From: Chloroflexota bacterium
Lineage (GTDB): Bacteria; Chloroflexota; Dehalococcoidia; UBA2979
Length of the DNA: 64,000 nucleotides
Reading direction: 5' to 3'
NCBI GenBank assembly: GCA_027593235.1
Contig: JAQCIU010000013.1
Location: 14,447 to 78,446 of the forward strand
Under the pieces are notes generated by a model that was not told the origin of the DNA, ran no database searches, and saw nothing but the letters and a program-made list of their open reading frames with translations. A program made the position numbers and the translations under genes. This document shows, in pieces, positions 41,287-49,292 of the stretch. The number at the start of each line of letters is the position of its first letter. Position 1 is the first letter of the stretch.

Positions 41287-42495
41287 CTAGAGGGTGAAGT
41301 GCAGTGCTTCGGCGACGGTGTTCATGTCCTTGTCGCCGCGCCCGCTGAGGTTCAGCAGCACCACGTCATCCGGCGTCAGTTCCGGGGCGAGCTTCGTGAG
41401 GTAGGCGACGGCGTGCGATGACTCGAGGGCAGGCACGATGCCTTCCAGTTCGCAGAGGAGCTGGAGGGCAACGAGCGCTTCCTGGTCGGTGATAGCGTGG
41501 TACTCGGCGCGCTCGTTGAGCTTGAGCCAGGAGTGCTCCGGGCCGACCCCGGGGTAGTCGAGCCCGGCGGAGATGGAGTGGGCCTCGATGATTTGACCCC
41601 ATTCATCCTGGAGCAGCATCGACTTCGCGCCGTGGAGCACGCCGGGGCGGCCTTTCGAGAGCGTGGCGGCGTGGCGGCCGTTGAGGCCCTCGCCGGCTGC
41701 TTCGACGCCGATCAGGCGGATCGGGTCATCGAGGAGCGGGTAAAAGAGGCCCATCGCGTTGGAGCCGCCGCCGACGCAGGCGATGCCGATGGTGGGGAGC
41801 CGCCCTTCCTGCTCGAGGATCTGGGCGCGAGCTTCGCGACCGATCACGGACTGGAAGTCGCGGACCATCATCGGGTACGGGTGCGGGCCAACGACGCTAC
41901 CAATGATGTAGTAGGTGTCGGCGACGTTGGTGACCCAGTCGCGAATCGCCTCGTTAGTCGCGTCCTTGAGGGTGCGTGAGCCGGCGTTGACGGTGCGGAC
42001 CTCCGCGCCAAGCAGCTTCATGCGGAAGACATTGAGCGACTGGCGACGAACGTCCTCGGCGCCCATGTAGACGACGCACTCAAGGTCCAGCAGCGCGCAG
42101 ACGGTGGCGGTGGCGACGCCGTGCTGGCCAGCGCCGGTCTCCGCGATGATGCGGCGCTTGCCCATGCGCTGGGCGAGCAGGCCCTGTGCGAGGGCGGCGT
42201 TGATCTTGTGCGCGCCGGTGTGGGTGAGGTCCTCGCGCTTCAGGTAGACCTTCGCGCCGACGCGCTCCGACAGCCGCTCGGTGAAGGTCAGCGGCGTAGG
42301 CCGTCCGACGTAGTTCTTGAGGAGATCATCGAGGCGCGCGCGGAACGCGGGATCCGCCATCGCCTCGTGGTAAGCGATCTCCAGCTCGGCGACCGCGGGC
42401 ATCAGGGTCTCGGGGATGTACTGGCCACCGAACTCACCGAAGTGCCCGGTGGCGTCCGGGAAGGGATCGGATCGGGGGTGTTCAGTGGTGGTCAT
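41287..42495 (-). CDS. trpB: Tryptophan synthase beta chain
   Basis: [49 protein letters not shown]. Confidence 0.97.
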
Positions 42496-42559
42496 GTTCG
42501 TCCCTGCTGCAGTCGTTCGGTGCCTCGGTCGGTTGGCATGTTCGCGGGTTCGGGCGGAC

Positions 42560-43309
42560 TCAGGACATGCTTTCGTCAGCGCGGCGCACCGCCTCGATGA
42601 AGGCGCGCACGCGGCCGTAGTCCTTGCGGCCGTTGGTCTCCGTGCCGGTGGCGACATCGACAATCCACGGCTCGACGGCGCGGATCGCTTCGGCGACGTT
42701 TTCCGGGCTGAGGCCACCGGCGAGCATGATCGGGATCCGATCGGCGACTCGTCGGGCCACCTCCCAGTCGAAGGTGCGGCCAGTGCCGCCACGGTAGGGA
42801 CCGTGCGCGGCATCGAGTCCGAGCGCGATCGCGAAGCCGGGCTGCACTGAGACGAGGGAATCCGAGGGCGAATCGAGCGGTGAGACGTGCACGATCTGGA
42901 TCACCTGGCGGGTGACGAGCAGGCAGTCCTCCCAGCTCTCATCGCCGGAGAGCTGGACGAGATCGACACCCGACTCCTCCGCGAGTTCGTTGACCTCGTC
43001 GATCGGCTGATCGGCGAAGATGCCGACGGTGAGCGGTCGCTTGACCTCGAGGTAGGCCTCGATCACCTCGGCGCCGTGGCGGAACCACGGCTCGATCTCC
43101 TCGCGGGCAGCGGACTGCGCGGGTGGCGGCACGGCGAACGGGTGATCGGCGAGCGGGGCGCCGAGGGCGCGGACCATCGCGCGCGCCTCATCGATGTCGA
43201 CCTGTCGGGTCGATTTGGCGAAGTTGATGCCGACGAAGTCGGCGCCAGCCTCCGCGGCGGCGAGGACATCCTCGGGCGTTCGGTTCCCGCAGATCTTGAC
43301 GAGGGTCAT
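42560..43309 (-). CDS. trpF: Phosphoribosylanthranilate isomerase with internal insertion
   Basis: [31 protein letters not shown]. Confidence 0.93.
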
Positions 43310-43337
43310 CGGTCACTCCGATCGCACACGGCACGCG

Positions 43338-44201
43338 TCATCGTGGAGTCCCGGCTGGTGCGATCATGAACTCGCGCGCGCGTTGTTCGACATTGTCGCC
43401 GGTAACGAGCGCTTCGCCGATCAGCAGCGCGTGGGCACCGGCAGCGGCCATGCGTTCGGCGTCCGCGCGGGTGCGGATCGCCGACTCGGCGACGAGCGTG
43501 GCTGCGGCACCGACGAGGCCGGCGAGACGCTCGGTGGTCCCGAGGTCTTCCTCGAAAGTACGGAGGTTGCGGTTGTTGACGCCGACGACGCGCGCGCCGC
43601 AGTCGAGTGCGACGCGCAGCTCCGGCTCGTCGTGCACCTCGATCAGTGGCTCCATGCCGAGGGCCCGGGTGCGGGCGATCAGCCTGGTGAGTACGTCAGG
43701 CTGCAGGAGCATGACGATCAGCAGGACGGCGTCGGCACCGTGGGCGCGCGCCTCCAGGAGTTGGTACTCGTCCCAGATGAACTCCTTGCGGAGCAGGGCC
43801 GGGCGATCGGGGTCAGCGCGGAAGGCCGCGCTGACGTCCGCGAGATCCTGGATGCTGCCGGCGAAGAAGTCGGGCTCCGTGAGGATGGAGATCGCGGCAG
43901 CGCCAGCACGGGCGTAGCTGGTCGCCTGCTGGACGGCATCGAGATCGGCGTCGAAGACGCCCTTGCTGGGGGAGGCGCGCTTCACCTCCGCGATCAGGCG
44001 GACACGCGCGCCCTCGGGGGTGGCGGGGCGACCGCCGCGCAGCAGTGCCTCGAAGTCGCGTGCGGGTGGCGCGCCCTCGATGAGCGCGGCCAGCACTGAC
44101 TCTGGTCGCGCGACGCGATCCTCGGCGAGTCGCAGGCGGCGTGCGGCGACGATCTTGTCGAGCACGGTGCCGGTGTCGCGGGTCGCGCTCGCGTCGGACA
44201 T
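43338..44201 (-). CDS. trpC: Indole-3-glycerol phosphate synthase
   Basis: IAEVKRASPSKG, SILTE, LRKEF, GVNNRNL, AESAI. Confidence 0.95.
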   Translation of the reverse strand: MSDASATRDTGTVLDKIVAARRLRLAEDRVARPESVLAALIEGAPPARDFEALLRGGRPATPEGARVRLIAEVKRASPSKGVFDADLDAVQQATSYARAGAAAISILTEPDFFAGSIQDLADVSAAFRADPDRPALLRKEFIWDEYQLLEARAHGADAVLLIVMLLQPDVLTRLIARTRALGMEPLIEVHDEPELRVALDCGARVVGVNNRNLRTFEEDLGTTERLAGLVGAAATLVAESAIRTRADAERMAAAGAHALLIGEALVTGDNVEQRAREFMIAPAGTPR

Positions 44202-44207
44202 CGGGGG

Positions 44208-45266
44208 CTACTTCCCCGCCGCGCGGCGGGTGGCCTCGACGAAAGCGCCGGTCTTGGCAGCGGCCTCGCCGCTGTCGATCGCCTTCGCGGCCAGCTCCGC
44301 GCCCTGCTTGATGGAGGAGGCGAGGCCAGAGACGTAGAGCCCGGCGGCGGCGTTGGCGATGATCAGATCGCGGACGGCGAGCGGGCCCTCACCGCGGAAG
44401 ACGGCGCGGAGGATACCGGCGTTGTCTTGCGGGGTCCCGCCCAGGATCGCGTCGAACGGGTGGATCGAGATACCGAGGTCGAAGGGGGTCACGGTGCGGC
44501 GGGTGACCTGCGTGCCTTTGACCTCGAAGATCGTCGACGGGCCGGTGACGGTGAGGTCATCGAGGCCGTCATCGCCGGAGACGACGAGCGCGTGGCGCAT
44601 GTCGAGGCGGGCAAGCGCGTGGGCGAGCTTCTCGCCGACCTCGGGGTTGGCGACACCCATGACGTGGCAGTTGGCGCCGGCCGGGTTCGTGAGCGGGCCG
44701 AGCAGGTTGAAGATCGTGCGGACGCCGATCTGGGGGCGCAGCGGGCCGGCGAACTTCATCGCGGGGTGGAACGACTGCGCGAACATGAAGCCGACGCCGG
44801 TCTGCTCCACGCACTGCGCGACCTGCTCCGGGGTGAGTGCGATCTGGGCGCCTAGCGCTTCGAGGAGATCGGCGGAACCGGACTGCGAGGTCATCGCGCG
44901 GTTGCCGTGCTTCGCTACCGTCGCGCCGGCGGCAGCGGCGACAAACGCCGCCGCGGTCGAGGCGTTGAACACCTTCCGGGAGGAGCCGCCGGTACCGGCG
45001 GTGTCGAGCAGCGGGCGCGCCTTGATATCGACGCGGAGGGCGTAGGAGCGCATCGCCTTCGCCATGCCGACGATCTCGTCGACGCTCTCGCCCTTCATGC
45101 GGAGGGCGGTGACGAACGCGCCGAACTGGGCGGGCGTCGCCTGTTCACCCTCGCTGGCCGGACCCTCGAGGCCAGCGCGCATGATGTCCTGCATCGCGCC
45201 GCGCGCTTCGGCCTCGGTGAGGTCGCGCCGCTCGTCGACGAGGGCGGCGATTGCTTCCTTGATCAC
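44208..45266 (-). CDS. trpD: Anthranilate phosphoribosyltransferase
   Basis: DTAGTGG, FNAST, AKHGNRA..SGSAD, RTIFNLLGPLTNP. Confidence 0.96.
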   Translation of the reverse strand: MIKEAIAALVDERRDLTEAEARGAMQDIMRAGLEGPASEGEQATPAQFGAFVTALRMKGESVDEIVGMAKAMRSYALRVDIKARPLLDTAGTGGSSRKVFNASTAAAFVAAAAGATVAKHGNRAMTSQSGSADLLEALGAQIALTPEQVAQCVEQTGVGFMFAQSFHPAMKFAGPLRPQIGVRTIFNLLGPLTNPAGANCHVMGVANPEVGEKLAHALARLDMRHALVVSGDDGLDDLTVTGPSTIFEVKGTQVTRRTVTPFDLGISIHPFDAILGGTPQDNAGILRAVFRGEGPLAVRDLIIANAAAGLYVSGLASSIKQGAELAAKAIDSGEAAAKTGAFVEATRRAAGK

Positions 45267-45868
45267 GATGCGACCACCTCGGCAGCGCGCAGGTGCGCAG
45301 GTGCGCTCACGCCGAGGAAGTTGGCGAGGAGCTGGTGGCCGACCTTCGTCATGATCGATTCGGGGTGGAACTGGATGCCCTCGATCGGGAGCGTCTTGTG
45401 CCGGACGCCCATGATGACGCCGCTCTCGGAGCGGGCGGTCACCTCGAGTTCCTCGGGGACGGTGGCCGGATCGATCGCGAGCGAGTGGTAGCGGATGCCC
45501 TCGAAGGGATTGGGTAGGCCGCGGAAGACGCCCTTACCGTCGTGCTCGATCATCGAGGTCTTCCCATGGAGGATCTCGCCCGCGTAGTTCACGGTGCCAC
45601 CGTACGCCTCGCCGATGGCCTGGTGGCCGAGGCAGACCCCGAGCAGCGGGACCTGCCCTGCCGCGGCTTTCACGAGATCGATGGAGATGCCCGCCTCCGC
45701 CGGCGTGCAGGGGCCGGGCGAGATCACGATCTGATCCGCGCCCATCGCCAGGCAGTCCTCCACGGAGATCTCGTCGTTGCGATGGACCTCGACCTGGGCG
45801 CCGAGTTCCGAGAGGTACTGGTAGAGGTTGAAGGTGAACGAGTCGTAATTGTCGATGAGTAACAGCAT
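45263..45868 (-). CDS. trpG: Anthranilate synthase component II (start may be 45889)
   Basis: IDNYDSFT, SPGP, GVCLGHQ, RYHSL, QFHPES. Confidence 0.95.
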   Translation of the reverse strand: MLLLIDNYDSFTFNLYQYLSELGAQVEVHRNDEISVEDCLAMGADQIVISPGPCTPAEAGISIDLVKAAAGQVPLLGVCLGHQAIGEAYGGTVNYAGEILHGKTSMIEHDGKGVFRGLPNPFEGIRYHSLAIDPATVPEELEVTARSESGVIMGVRHKTLPIEGIQFHPESIMTKVGHQLLANFLGVSAPAHLRAAEVVAS

Positions 45869-45898
45869 GAGGTTGCCGTCCTTCGTCATGTCGCTAAT

Positions 45899-46828
45899 TT
45901 AGTCCTGGCGAGCGGTGTCCGACATCGCCAGGAGCTGTTCGGTGTGTTCGTGTTCGTGGCGGGAGATCTTGGCGATGCGATCGCCGATCCGGACGGCACC
46001 GCGTTCGTGGTGGTTGCCGTACTGGGTGAGCTGATCGTCCTCGAGACTGGCGAGCCAAAAGCGGGTGCGCTCGCGCGCCGCGTCCAGGCGTTGGCGCACG
46101 GTTTCGAGGTCGTCGACCGGCCGCGCGCGGTAGAGATCGTGCCACTGCGCGTCGTTGAAGCCGCGCCAGGTGTGCCCGGCGATGCGGAGCAGCCGATCGG
46201 TCTCGGCCAGGTAGTAGGTCTCGACATCGGCGATGTGCGCGAGGATGTCGAGCGGCGACCAGCCGTCCGTCAGTTGCTCCTCGCGAGCCGCCTCGGGGAC
46301 GGACTCGAAGGCGGCGAGCAGCGCGCCGCGCGTCTCGTTGAGCAGCGTGCCGATCGCATTCGCGGTCTGCGGATGCTCCGCAGCGCCGAGGGTGCGGGCG
46401 AGCCAGGCGGCGACCTCCGGCAGCAGTTCCGAGCCAACCGACGGGGTCGCGGGGTGTGCCCAGACGGCATCGGCGTAGTGCTTCGCGTTGAAGCGCGGCT
46501 CGCCGCGCCATGCACGACAGAGGAACGCGTTCACGATGAAGCGTGAACCGCCCTCACCGCTGACGTAGAGCGTGTCCTCGAAATCGAACGGACCCGGCTC
46601 GACGTGGACGTGCTCGCGCAGCACGCGCCCGAGTGCTTCCTCGGCGGTCTCGTCGTCGGCGACGCCGGTGATCGGGAGCGACCAGCGGCCGGCGAACGGA
46701 CCGGCATCGAGGTGCCGGAGGAGGAGGACGCGGCCGTCGTCACGGCGCATCACGGCCGCGGAGGCAAGCAGCGGGCCGGCCGGTGGGCCGGCAGATGAAG
46801 CGGGGGGCGGAGAAGCATCGTTGGTCAT
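45899..46828 (-). CDS. NUDIX-like plus DinB-family fusion protein
   Basis: N-terminal Nudix fold (VLLLR..WSLP..ETAEEA); C-terminal WSPLDILAHIADVE..HEHEH. Confidence 0.8.
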   Translation of the reverse strand: MTNDASPPPASSAGPPAGPLLASAAVMRRDDGRVLLLRHLDAGPFAGRWSLPITGVADDETAEEALGRVLREHVHVEPGPFDFEDTLYVSGEGGSRFIVNAFLCRAWRGEPRFNAKHYADAVWAHPATPSVGSELLPEVAAWLARTLGAAEHPQTANAIGTLLNETRGALLAAFESVPEAAREEQLTDGWSPLDILAHIADVETYYLAETDRLLRIAGHTWRGFNDAQWHDLYRARPVDDLETVRQRLDAARERTRFWLASLEDDQLTQYGNHHERGAVRIGDRIAKISRHEHEHTEQLLAMSDTARQD

Positions 46829-46845: not shown

Positions 46846-48315
46846 CTAGTAGCCGAGGCTGCCGGTCGGCGGCCCGCCCTCGCCGTGTTCCGCATCATCC
46901 AACGCGGCGATCAACGCGCGCGCCTTGTGCTGGCATTCCTCGTACTCCTTCAGCGGATCGGAGTCGAAGACGATGCCAGCGCCCGCCTGCACGTGTGCCC
47001 AGCCGTCCTTCATCACCAGCGTGCGGATAGTGATGCAGGTCTCCGCGTTGCCGGACATGTCGAAGAATCCGACGGCGCCCGCGTACGGCCCGCGCTGATC
47101 CGGCTCGAGTTCGGCGATGATCTCCATCGCGCGGATCTTCGGGGCGCCGGAGACGGTCCCGGCCGGGAAGGCGGAGCGCAGCGCGTCGTAGGCGGTCATG
47201 TCGTCCCGCAACCGGCCCTGCACGTGGCTGACGAGGTGCATGACGTGCGAGTAGTACTCGATGTCGAGCTGCTGGGTGACCTCGACGGTGCCCGGCGTGG
47301 CGACGCGTCCGACGTCGTTGCGGCCGAGGTCGAGCAGCATCACGTGCTCGGCGATCTCCTTGGGGTCGTGGGCCAACTCCTCGGCGAGACGCTCGTCGTC
47401 GAGCGGAGTCTCGCCGCGCCGGCGGGTACCGGCGATCGGGTGCACCTCAACGAGGTCGTCCTCGATGTTGACCAGTAGCTCCGGGGAAGCGCCGACGATG
47501 TAGGTGTCGTCGAACTTGAGGTAGTACATGTACGGCGAGGGATTGATCGCGCGCAGGCTGCGATAGACCTCGAACGGGTGCGCCCCCGTCTGCCGCGAGA
47601 AGCGGAGCGAGATGACGCCCTGAATGATGTCGCCCTCGACGATGTAGTCCTTGATCCGACCGACCGCGGTCATGTACTCCGCCTGCGACCAGTTCTCCTG
47701 GATCGGCTGACCGGCGACACCGTCGAAGGGGATGTACGGCAGCGCGCCGAGCGGGATCTCGAGGCGGGCGACGAGTTCGTCGATGCGGCCAACGGCCTGG
47801 CGGTAGCTGGAGTCGATATCGCCGTCGAGCCGGACGTGCGAGACCACCTTGATCGAGTGCATGAGGTGATCGAATACGAGCAGGGTCTCGGCGAACATCA
47901 ACCATGATTCGGGCAACCCGATGGTGTTCGGACCGGCGATCGGCAGATCCTCGAAGTGACCGCCCGCCTCCCACCCGAGGTAGCCGACGGCGCCGCCGTG
48001 GAAGCGGGGCAGCCCCGGGACCTCCACGGCCTGCAGGCGCCCGAGTTCGCGTTCGATTTCGTCGAGCGGATCGCCATCGCTGTGATCGCGCGCGGCGACG
48101 CGGAAGGGCTCCGTGCCGATGAAGGAGTAGCGCCCGAGCCGCTCGCCGCCCTCGACGGATTCGAGGAGGAACGAGTAGGGACCGCGGGCGACCTTCAGGT
48201 AGGCGGAGACGGGCGTCTCCAGGTCAGCGCGGACCTCGCGGAAGACGGGGACGATGTTGCCTTTCCCCTGGAGGCGACGGACTTCGTTCAGGGGTGGGGT
48301 GTACTCACCGGGCAT
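46846..48315 (-). CDS. trpE: Anthranilate synthase component I
   Basis: FLLESVEGGE..RYSF, NPSPYM, PIAGT, EHVMLLDLGRND, FPAGTVSGAPK. Confidence 0.96.
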   Translation of the reverse strand: MPGEYTPPLNEVRRLQGKGNIVPVFREVRADLETPVSAYLKVARGPYSFLLESVEGGERLGRYSFIGTEPFRVAARDHSDGDPLDEIERELGRLQAVEVPGLPRFHGGAVGYLGWEAGGHFEDLPIAGPNTIGLPESWLMFAETLLVFDHLMHSIKVVSHVRLDGDIDSSYRQAVGRIDELVARLEIPLGALPYIPFDGVAGQPIQENWSQAEYMTAVGRIKDYIVEGDIIQGVISLRFSRQTGAHPFEVYRSLRAINPSPYMYYLKFDDTYIVGASPELLVNIEDDLVEVHPIAGTRRRGETPLDDERLAEELAHDPKEIAEHVMLLDLGRNDVGRVATPGTVEVTQQLDIEYYSHVMHLVSHVQGRLRDDMTAYDALRSAFPAGTVSGAPKIRAMEIIAELEPDQRGPYAGAVGFFDMSGNAETCITIRTLVMKDGWAHVQAGAGIVFDSDPLKEYEECQHKARALIAALDDAEHGEGGPPTGSLGY

Positions 48316-48451
48316 GGCGAACCTCGTGTATGGCGCTTGCGGGACGGCGGCTGAGCGAACGTGCACGGCTGCGCCACCACTGCCCCCGGCCGCTGTGATC
48401 GCCCAGAGGGCGACCGGCGTTGGCGGGCACGTGACGGGTGTCGCTGCTCAT
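48305..48451 (-). CDS. Candidate 48-aa Trp-Trp leader peptide overlapping the trpE start
   Basis: GAGGAG RBS (48461-48466); MSSDTRHVPANAGRPLGDHSGRGQWWRS..; TGG TGG at 48374-48379; stop inside trpE. Confidence 0.6.
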   Translation of the reverse strand: MSSDTRHVPANAGRPLGDHSGRGQWWRSRARSLSRRPASAIHEVRHAR

Positions 48452-48536
48452 CGTTCGATTCTCCTCATCCCAGCGGCCATACGGCCGAGGGCTCCTCGTC
48501 TCGCCTCGGGCGGTTGACCGAGATCGTTTCGCACAC

Positions 48537-48565
48537 AAAAAAACCACCGCCCGTGGGGCGATGGT
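48537..48565 (-). terminator. T-box terminator hairpin
   Basis: ACCATCGCCC-cac-GGGCGGTGGT followed by a T tract. Confidence 0.88.
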
Positions 48566-48826
48566 CCTCGCGGTGCCACCCACATTTCGCCGGCACGGCG
48601 GAGCCGCGTCGACGCATCTTCGGAGCACGGCCACCGTTCGAGACGGGGCGATGCCCTGGGCCTGGATAACGGCGCCCACACCGTCGACGCCTACTTGCGC
48701 TCCAGAGGAGCGCGTTTGGGCCGAGACTCACGGGTCCATTCGGTCGTTGCTGGCGGGCGCCGGTTCTCAGCTTGTCCGGTTCTCTGTAGCCCCGCGTGAC
48801 GACGTACTACTCCCGATCAACGTCGG
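48537..48826 (-). ncRNA. T-box riboswitch, Trp specifier
   Basis: AGTA, AGAGA and GCTGAGA stem I motifs; GAA-TGG-A specifier (48736-48738); GGTGGCACCGCG T-box (bulge 48572-48578); terminator downstream. Confidence 0.93.
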
Positions 48827-48850
48827 TATTGAAACCTCAGTAATCGGTCG

Positions 48851-48879
48851 AGGCTACGCCACAGCTCGAAAGCATGCAA
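48851..48879 (-). promoter_or_regulatory. trp operon promoter
   Basis: TTGCAT-17 nt-TAGCCT just upstream of T-box stem I. Confidence 0.6.
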
Positions 48880-48896
48880 CGAGATTAGCGGCCCGC

Positions 48897-49292
48897 CTAC
48901 GCCTCGTCCGGGCCTCGCGAGCCAAGCTGCTGGGCCGAGTCACACAACTCCACGTATGAATCGAAGAACTGCTCCTGAAAGCGGACGGCCGCGGCGATCT
49001 TCTGGGCGTCCCAGGTCTCCGCGCCGACGACGGCGACGAGCTTGTCTTCGACGTCATCGCGACGGCGCACGATGCCGACGACCTCGGCGCGCTCGCAGAC
49101 CTCGAGGGGTTCGCTGGTACCGAGGAGGTAGACGTCGAGTTCTTCCCCGTCGGGGGCGAGCACGCCGGGGACGAAGCCGTAGTTCACCTCGTAGGCGTAG
49201 CCGTGCTCGGGGTGAGTGGATCCGAGCGGGCGATCGATCACGACGCGCGTGGTGCGCCCGGTCCAGTCCTGGGGGTGGAGTGAGTCGTCCAT
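48897..49292 (-). CDS. Short family I inorganic pyrophosphatase-like protein
   Basis: IDRPLGSTHP, NYGFVPG, DGEELDVY, EDKLV. Confidence 0.8.
   Translation of the reverse strand: MDDSLHPQDWTGRTTRVVIDRPLGSTHPEHGYAYEVNYGFVPGVLAPDGEELDVYLLGTSEPLEVCERAEVVGIVRRRDDVEDKLVAVVGAETWDAQKIAAAVRFQEQFFDSYVELCDSAQQLGSRGPDEA

Follow-up and report, generated by a model that had tools for sequence, protein, structure and literature searches.

The trpE leader region in the window

The DNA analysed here, referred to as the window, is a stretch of 64,000 nucleotides (nt) from contig JAQCIU010000013.1 (positions 14,447 to 78,446, assembly GCA_027593235.1) of a Chloroflexota bacterium of the class Dehalococcoidia, whose close relatives in the named genome collection are metagenome-assembled genomes of uncultured Dehalococcoidia and Chloroflexota. 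It carries a tryptophan biosynthesis (trp) operon, and the region upstream of trpE in this operon is the subject of this work. There, a T-box RNA element specific for tRNA-Trp is followed by a short open reading frame (ORF) with tandem Trp codons, called the leader, which runs over the start of trpE. This arrangement makes it very likely that the charging of tRNA-Trp would be read twice, in series, on a biosynthetic trp operon. All coordinates are those of the window, and the leader and the operon are on the minus strand.

The Trp T-box leader, from Stem I to the antiterminator, was located at 48551..48829 by a full-length match to RF00230 (model positions 1-219, 67.2 bits, E 2.6e-14). The score is below the Rfam gathering score of 93, and a scan at the gathering threshold lists nothing. 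The specifier codon UGG (48736..48738), which was aligned to the specifier position of RF00230, lies in the context GAA-UGG-A with the purine A next to it at 48735, and fits the downstream trp genes as well as the tRNA-Trp anticodon CCA. The conserved T-box sequence AAATGTGGGTGGCACCGCGAG with its UGGC, the region of the T-box 14-mer, was placed at 48567..48587 by reading of the sequence and by the covariance model alignment; within it, GGGUGGCACCGCG at 48581-48569 carries the T-box UGGC, complementary to the GCCA end of tRNA-Trp. Both the specifier and the T-box contacts fit, because the single tRNA-Trp of the genome, as found by ARAGORN, has the anticodon CCA, the discriminator G and the 3' end G-CCA. 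The hairpin ACCATCGCCCC-ACG-GGGCGGTGGT followed by seven T residues (48537..48565) is the sole terminator-like site in 48000-49200, and the antiterminator pairs aligned by the RF00230 model would compete with this predicted intrinsic terminator (48565-48537). A second or tandem T-box was not found, as there was no further RF00230 match at E up to 10. Given the UGG specifier, the UGGC bulge and the intrinsic terminator, the first tier of the proposed control, a Trp-specific T-box, is evident from sequence.

Three T-box matches were found in the genome in all, the one before trpE and two before thrS- and ileS-like starts. The other two (G000:C44:16717-16954 and G000:C30:15928-16251) scored 41.6 and 29.1 bits, also below the gathering score, and both have clear terminators. 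RF00230 systematically under-scores the T-boxes of the window's lineage. A general rule by which a T-box is accompanied by an upstream ORF (uORF) with cognate codons was considered and rejected, since the thrS and ileS T-boxes lead directly into their genes with no cognate-codon ORF.

The terminator is separated from the trpE ATG by 222 nt, close to the 220 nt of the original prediction made for this DNA, and this interval holds the leader. A strong ribosome site, the Shine-Dalgarno sequence (SD) GAGGAG at 48461..48466, is found about 85 nt past the terminator and 9 nt ahead of the ATG at 48451. The ORF that follows (48305..48451) has 48 codons plus TGA and reads MSSDTRHVPANAGRPLGDHSGRGQWWRSRARSLSRRPASAIHEVRHAR. 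Its only Trp codons are codons 25-26, in tandem at 48374..48379, and these are the likely sensing site. A spacer recognized by its base skew as C-rich and G-poor (48328..48373) leads from the Trp codons to the ribosome site of trpE, where the SD GAGG (48322..48325, 6 nt before the ATG at 48315) is contained in the leader ORF. The leader is out of frame with respect to trpE, crosses both the GAGG and the ATG, and has its stop 8 nt after the A of the trpE ATG. The trpE ATG (48315-48313) and the leader TGA (48307-48305) thereby form an 11-nt overlap, ATGCCCGGTGA, at 48305..48315. The T-box, the terminator, the GAGGAG, the 48-codon ORF with Trp codons only in tandem and the overlap with trpE had all been placed correctly by the original prediction.

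The trpE gene itself (46846..48315) encodes anthranilate synthase component I of 489 aa, with Pfam matches to Chorismate_bind (3.4e-90) and Anth_synt_I_N (4.8e-27). The remaining operon (41287..46828) comprises a NUDIX/DinB ORF, trpG, trpD, trpC, trpF and a PALP enzyme, with the Pfam domains NUDIX with DinB_2, GATase, Glycos_transf_3, IGPS, PRAI and PALP; these gene names are a reading of the domains, by which the PALP enzyme is taken to be trpB. The ORF with NUDIX and DinB_2 domains, of 309 aa at 45899-46828 on the minus strand, is inside the operon, with trpE on one side and trpG on the other.

Conservation of the leader and of its stop codon

A frame of 48 codons means little alone because the DNA is GC-rich, and trpE upstream regions were therefore compared across the family. 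The upstream DNA was taken from 90 of the 92 family genomes having trpE, in 20 genera; the window's order is represented by this single family in the genome set searched. To count as a leader, an ORF had to begin at a start codon with an SD-like site, contain Trp codons in a tight cluster (W, 0-2 residues, W) and end at a stop in the interval -65..+30 relative to the trpE start. Such an ORF was found at 64 of the 90 loci, and a further 3 of the 90 have two Trp codons wider apart. The original prediction had named the absence of the Trp-codon ORF from relatives beforehand as a reason to abandon the idea; the ORF is present in 15 of the 20 genera. Neither form was found at 23 loci, which belong to the low-GC genera g8, g10 and g16 (12), to g5 (1) and g15 (5), or are the single loci L005, L018, L140, L143 and L162. 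As a null, 22,605 open segments of 34-66 codons from the window's genome were used; a tight Trp cluster occurs in 7.2% of them and WW in 3.1%. With the ORF, the Trp cluster and the stop position conserved at 64 of 90 loci against the null of 7.2%, the leader ORF is beyond chance.

The 64 leaders have a median length of 41 codons (range 32-66) and contain two (16 leaders), three (33), four (14) or five (1) Trp codons, so that W makes up 7.3% of the leader residues, compared with 2.1% in the null segments. The peptides vary freely between genera except for the W cluster, which is usually followed by Arg, as in GQWWRS, RAWWWRT, GVWRWRR, SGWWRWWRP and AWRWPGWRAWRGW. From the SD-led start to the stop the frame is maintained despite all changes in leader length, and a script flagged an SD-like 4-mer ahead of the chosen start in nearly all leaders of 61 relatives. 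The first Trp codon, at leader codon 16-37, is a median 62 nt (interquartile range 59-71) before the trpE start, a distance far enough to put a stalled ribosome clear of that start.

By pattern search, 48 of the 64 leaders have a T-box 14-mer upstream. Loci of the g6b subgroup do not match this exact pattern, yet all six of the g6b loci submitted to cmscan gave Rfam T-box matches. In genus g3 (L015 1-1520, L125, L127 and L139) the order is T-box-like motif, trpS, leader and trpE, the motif being recognizable there only from the characteristic residues that it encodes where the trpS frame begins. Since trpS lies between this motif and the leader in g3, the leader travels with trpE. At the five g15 loci (L022 and L165-L168) the T-box is a variant with an insertion reading GGCUGGUGGCG, the in-frame WW is a by-product of the RNA motif, and trpE follows within about 100 nt of the variant T-box with no separate leader. 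The WW of the window is not such a by-product, being some 190 nt past the T-box sequence. L022 and its genus were considered as a case of classical attenuation and rejected as such, given that the WW is inside the variant T-box motif; L165 is the submitted g15 locus that matched the Rfam T-box. One locus of the window's own genus, L005 (genome G002), has 700 nt of 47% GC upstream of trpE with no T-box motif and no leader, in contrast to the three remaining genomes of that genus; this upstream region may have been replaced, or the contig may be mis-binned.

None of 58 trpE loci from other families of the class has a leader of the family type. The T-box motif was found 52-134 nt before trpE at 25 of these 58 loci. 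W-cluster ORFs were flagged at L196 and L203 but were rejected as out-of-frame stretches of trpS arising by chance, and a third, at L180, a long frame without a T-box, was likewise judged to be chance. In several other families trpS is directly before trpE or overlaps it, with no leader. Judged by the loci sampled, the leader was invented within the window's family, and it looks like an independent invention of the window's order.

Stop positions were measured on 61 leaders, the set as it stood without three g18 loci that joined later. In 53 of the 61 the stop overlaps the start of trpE: 34 have ATGA or GTGA, and in 19 the stop is 2-20 nt past the first base of the start. It is just ahead of the start in 2 and elsewhere in 6, four of which are from g13. 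Counted another way, 58 of 61 loci have the leader stop in the interval -31..+14 around the trpE start, whereas the first third-frame stop is in that interval at 19 of 61. With the stop so placed in the window and its relatives, a terminating ribosome would cover the ribosome site of trpE. The stop codon is TGA in 63 of the 64 leaders. In g13 it is about 14 nt before a strong GGAGG, which we take to be also the geometry of rtpLP, the Trp-codon leader peptide of the Bacillus subtilis at operon discussed below. The SD of trpE itself is weak (4-mers) or absent (L002 and L003, both of the window's genus). Genera differ in whether the leader is in the +1 or the +2 frame relative to trpE. A hungry-codon frameshift into the trpE frame was considered as well and found unsupported: read backwards from trpE, its frame stays open as far as the Trp codons at 59 of 61 loci, but the third frame is open too at 53 of 61.

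Folding of the leader RNA and the proposed pairing with the trpE start

The original prediction had proposed that the mRNA at the tandem Trp codons pairs with the trpE start and that a ribosome stalled at these codons frees the start. The complementarity exists as written, since all ten pairs between GGGCA/UGGCG (48385-48372) and CGCCAUGCCC (48319-48310) are standard, but it is not distinctive. The duplex of the WW segment with the trpE start was calculated at -21.4 kcal/mol, and 9% of 400 random 22-mers from the genome did as well or better. In the ensemble of the post-terminator RNA (48536..48270) the ten pairs have a probability of 0.0 and can be enforced only at a cost of +15.0 kcal/mol. 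In the window fold the WW codons are instead paired with leader codons 5-7 (48437-48432, p 0.6-0.96), and the trpE GAGG with CCUC at 48490-48487. A ribosome footprint was modelled at the first Trp codon, taken as the A-site codon, and at every third codon, in a context that began 20 nt before the leader start and excluded the arm at 48490-48473. Placing the footprint on the first Trp codon did not change the energy needed to open the window's trpE start (5.8 to 5.8 kcal/mol). Release of the trpE start from pairing with WW by a stalled ribosome was not supported by these equilibrium folds, which leave room for a kinetic version.

The comparison with relatives had the same outcome. The footprint lowered the opening energy of the trpE start by at least 2 kcal/mol in 6 of 61 relatives and raised it equally in 2 of 61. 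The median rank of the Trp-window duplex against random genomic 22-mers was 0.56 in the family, and the duplexes of Trp windows with their own trpE start were hardly better than those with starts from other genera (-15.3 vs -14.8 kcal/mol), the own start being better in 33 of 61 cases. Cognate duplexes stood out only in genera g1 and g12. Within the window's genus, alignment showed only one-sided changes in the helix, two wobble and two disruptive in L003, and no compensatory change. The Trp window was among the best in-transcript partners of the trpE start (rank 0.1 or lower) in 38 of 61 loci, a signal which arises because the Trp window is G-rich and which is gone against random 22-mers and non-cognate starts. 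The pairing of WW with the trpE start was therefore rejected as a general mechanism, in view of the pair probability of 0.0, the cost of 15 kcal/mol, the lack of a footprint effect in the window and the lack of gain over random or non-cognate sequences. It is not the conserved transducer and is not conserved beyond the window's genus, although it may have a kinetic role in g1. The alignment of trpE upstream regions that had been suggested as a check gave a divided answer: the ribosome site and the Trp cluster are kept in relatives (64 of 90), whereas no covarying pairing with the trpE start was seen within the window's genus. The same holds for the wider proposal of two-tier sensing of tRNA-Trp, of which the Trp T-box and the conserved Trp-codon leader over the trpE start were upheld and the helix as transducer was unsupported.

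Other structures were looked for in the same RNAs. No common consensus structure is shared between genus groups; in consensus folds made by group, the W codons have downstream partners in g6a but upstream ones in g6b and g1. On the minus strand of the window, CCUCGGCCGUAUGGC (48473-48490), just upstream of the leader SD, pairs with GCCAUACACGAGG (48322-48339), which includes the trpE SD, with p 0.5-0.8. A similar closing helix occurs in the g6b consensus, with a compensatory change in 1 of 39 pairs. In the 61 loci compared, pairing of the region around the leader start with the start of trpE is weakly above controls: its median rank is 0.36, a rank of 0.1 or lower is reached at 9 of 61 loci, and the cognate partner is the better one at 42 of 61.

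A tract poor in G and rich in C, about 100 nt long (48270-48373 in the window), extends from the Trp codons into the first trpE codons. Expressed as (G-C)/length, the skew at genus level in the family is -0.17 for the spacer, and that of the first 45 nt of trpE is -0.18. For the 3 loci of the window's genus the spacer value averages -0.19; 13 of 15 genera have a negative value, and a skew of -0.16 is reached by just 11.5% of random 45-nt windows. RNA of this kind folds poorly by itself. The tract may offer an open landing site for ribosomes; less likely, it may be a site for Rho.

Possible modes of trpE control and known parallels

The closest known parallel is the at operon of B. subtilis (rtpA/yczA). 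It too has a Trp T-box followed by a short Trp-codon ORF which acts on translation of the next gene and ends at its ribosome site. There rtpLP, with three Trp codons, precedes the gene for anti-TRAP (AT), so that both sensors read tRNA-Trp and the parts are in the same order as here. The two systems differ in the gene controlled, which is the regulator anti-TRAP in B. subtilis and would here be the biosynthetic trpE itself. The host also differs, being a member of the Chloroflexota with no known TRAP system. The rtpLP leader is said to have 10 codons, compared with about 40 here, and its stop is just before the SD, while here the stop is on the start codon, a coupling geometry, except in genus g13. 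For B. subtilis, the excerpted text of PMC10327191 attributes AT synthesis to a T-box together with 'tRNA-dependent ribosome stalling', citing Chen & Yanofsky 2003 and 2004.

By analogy with rtpLP, trpE may be controlled by ribosome occupancy of its start, a reading that we put forward tentatively, at somewhat less than an even chance. In the first tier, the T-box would let transcription through only when uncharged tRNA-Trp is bound. In the second, the leader frame would be translated and its Trp codons would sense charged tRNA-Trp. With charged tRNA-Trp plentiful, ribosomes would complete the leader, cross the trpE start, terminate on it and keep it occupied, and transcripts that had leaked past the terminator would yield little TrpE. 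With charged tRNA-Trp scarce, ribosomes would be held about 60 nt upstream, stalled on the Trp codons, clearing the C-rich, weakly structured trpE start for fresh initiation, and trpE expression would rise. This scheme needs a conserved stop position and no specific helix between WW and the AUG. The selection on the leader frame, the fixing of its stop on the trpE start and the modularity of the leader in g3 all support it, as do the distance of the first Trp codon from the trpE start, the C-rich spacer and the lack of an RNA structure shared between genera.

Several points weigh against it. The direction of regulation was drawn solely from the logic of a biosynthetic operon, and the weak or absent trpE SD fits dependence on coupling better than free initiation. 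Moreover, the geometry of stop and start (ATGA, or an overlap of at most 13 nt) is of the type that gave positive coupling in Sinorhizobium meliloti reporters, where, according to the excerpt of PMC13285730, destroying such uORFs lowered expression of the main ORF.

The main rival explanation is positive translational coupling only, which we consider unlikely. The leader would feed ribosomes to an SD-poor and structured trpE start, by termination-reinitiation or by melting of helices, and the Trp codons would just throttle delivery in extreme starvation or serve another purpose. The ATGA or GTGA overlaps at 34 of 61 loci, the short overlaps at 19, the weak or missing trpE SD at some loci and the 5-16 kcal/mol needed to open the trpE start in free RNA all agree with it. 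In the excerpt of PMC13285730, uORFs overlapping by ATGA and by 13 nt couple in S. meliloti; as here, the stop/start overlap is at most 13 nt and the SD of the main ORF is inside the uORF, and the same excerpt differs in reporting no regulatory codon clusters and no preceding riboswitch. Coupling leaves unexplained, however, why every leader has 2-5 codons for Trp, the rarest residue, while the rest of the peptide drifts, and stalling would cut TrpE synthesis just when Trp is short, which is the wrong sign. Slightly less likely still in our estimate is translational attenuation of the type of Ms5788A, a mycobacterial polycysteine uORF, or of the actinobacterial LEU element, in which the G-rich Trp-codon segment would hide the trpE start by pairing until a stalled ribosome frees it. 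These precedents resemble the present case in having regulatory codons in an upstream ORF before a biosynthetic gene in a high-GC genome, with the codons shown or proposed to pair with the SD (excerpts of 10.1101/834739 and PMC1262725). The 10-bp complementarity and the -21.4 kcal/mol duplex in the window, the rank of the Trp window among in-transcript partners at 38 of 61 loci and the better cognate duplexes of g1 and g12 are in its favour. The pairing is nevertheless unsupported here: it has a probability of 0.0 in the window and costs 15 kcal/mol to enforce, the footprint has no effect in the window and eases opening in just 6 of 61 relatives, the duplex does not surpass random genomic 22-mers (rank 0.09 in the window, family median 0.56) or non-cognate starts (33 of 61), and compensatory changes are absent from the window's genus. 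Attenuation of this type also does not require the leader to reach the trpE start, yet that feature is conserved, while the Ms5788A ORF, in the excerpt of 10.1101/834739, ends 97 nt before its gene. Classical trp attenuators (trpL of Escherichia coli and the trpE leaders of Corynebacterium and Streptomyces) share with the present leader an SD-led short ORF with tandem Trp followed by Arg (WWR), and the excerpt of PMC1262725 describes Trp leader peptides with terminators as known in Actinobacteria. Here, however, no terminator or antiterminator is found past the Trp codons in 48000-49200, the ORF runs about 20 codons beyond them to the trpE start, and a T-box precedes it.

Stalling could also act on the RNA, a ribosome at the Trp codons altering the access of Rho to the C-rich tract or shielding the mRNA from decay at its 5' end, which we regard as quite unlikely. 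The tract of about 100 nt is directly past the Trp codons, its skew (-0.17/-0.18) is negative in 13 of 15 genera while random 45-nt windows reach -0.16 in only 11.5% of cases, and the genome encodes Rho. On the other hand, the Rho utilization (rut) site is putative, and a stall upstream would expose the tract instead of covering it, the wrong sign for a biosynthetic operon; the idea of decay has ermC as its sole model. It is very improbable that the leader is an arrest peptide like TnaC, whose nascent W-W-(W)-R would bind free Trp in the exit tunnel and block release at the UGA on the trpE AUG, so that the parked ribosome physically shuts the trpE start. The stop codon, which is UGA in 63 of 64 leaders and sits on the trpE start, would suit such a peptide, as would the W cluster with its following R, conserved 17-29 residues ahead of the stop. 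Against it, the distance from W to the stop varies by lineage and the W count from 2 to 5, as is typical of codon sensing and not of tunnel contact, the C-terminal residues are explained by the overlapped trpE SD sequence, and the UGA is forced by the ATGA. If it were true, the operon would integrate uncharged tRNA-Trp through the T-box and free Trp through the peptide with no protein regulator. We see just as slight a chance that the frame is untranslated, the UGG repeats being an RNA motif (a T-box relic or a second site for the 3' end of the tRNA) and the ORF incidental in GC-rich DNA. UGGC, the T-box bulge sequence, does recur in most W clusters, the WW of g15 does sit in a variant T-box motif, and all three frames are mostly open over the span; but the SD and start are at a steady distance, the frame is kept through insertions and deletions, the stop is on the trpE start at 58 of 61 loci (19 of 61 for the third frame), and no second T-box is matched at E up to 10.

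A Trp T-box before trpE has a precedent in the same class. The excerpted text of PMC2494555 (Wels et al., 2008) lists a trpE-related Trp T-box for Dehalococcoides strains CBDB1 and 195; it differs from the present case in that the excerpt describes no leader ORF. A full-text literature search found no description of a trpE operon in which a T-box precedes a Trp-codon ORF. Tandem sensing by a T-box and a Trp-codon leader has, to our knowledge, been described only for the anti-TRAP gene of B. subtilis.

For annotation, the present locus is a warning that a 'spacer' past a T-box can contain a second control element. The roughly 64 natural variants of the leader, which include ATGA, overlaps of 8-17 nt, a stop before the SD and trpS inserted upstream, offer a view of how translational coupling can become regulation when a stop is placed on a start. 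Across 15 genera of an uncultured Chloroflexota family, the tandem logic of the B. subtilis anti-TRAP gene would be applied directly to the biosynthetic trp operon.

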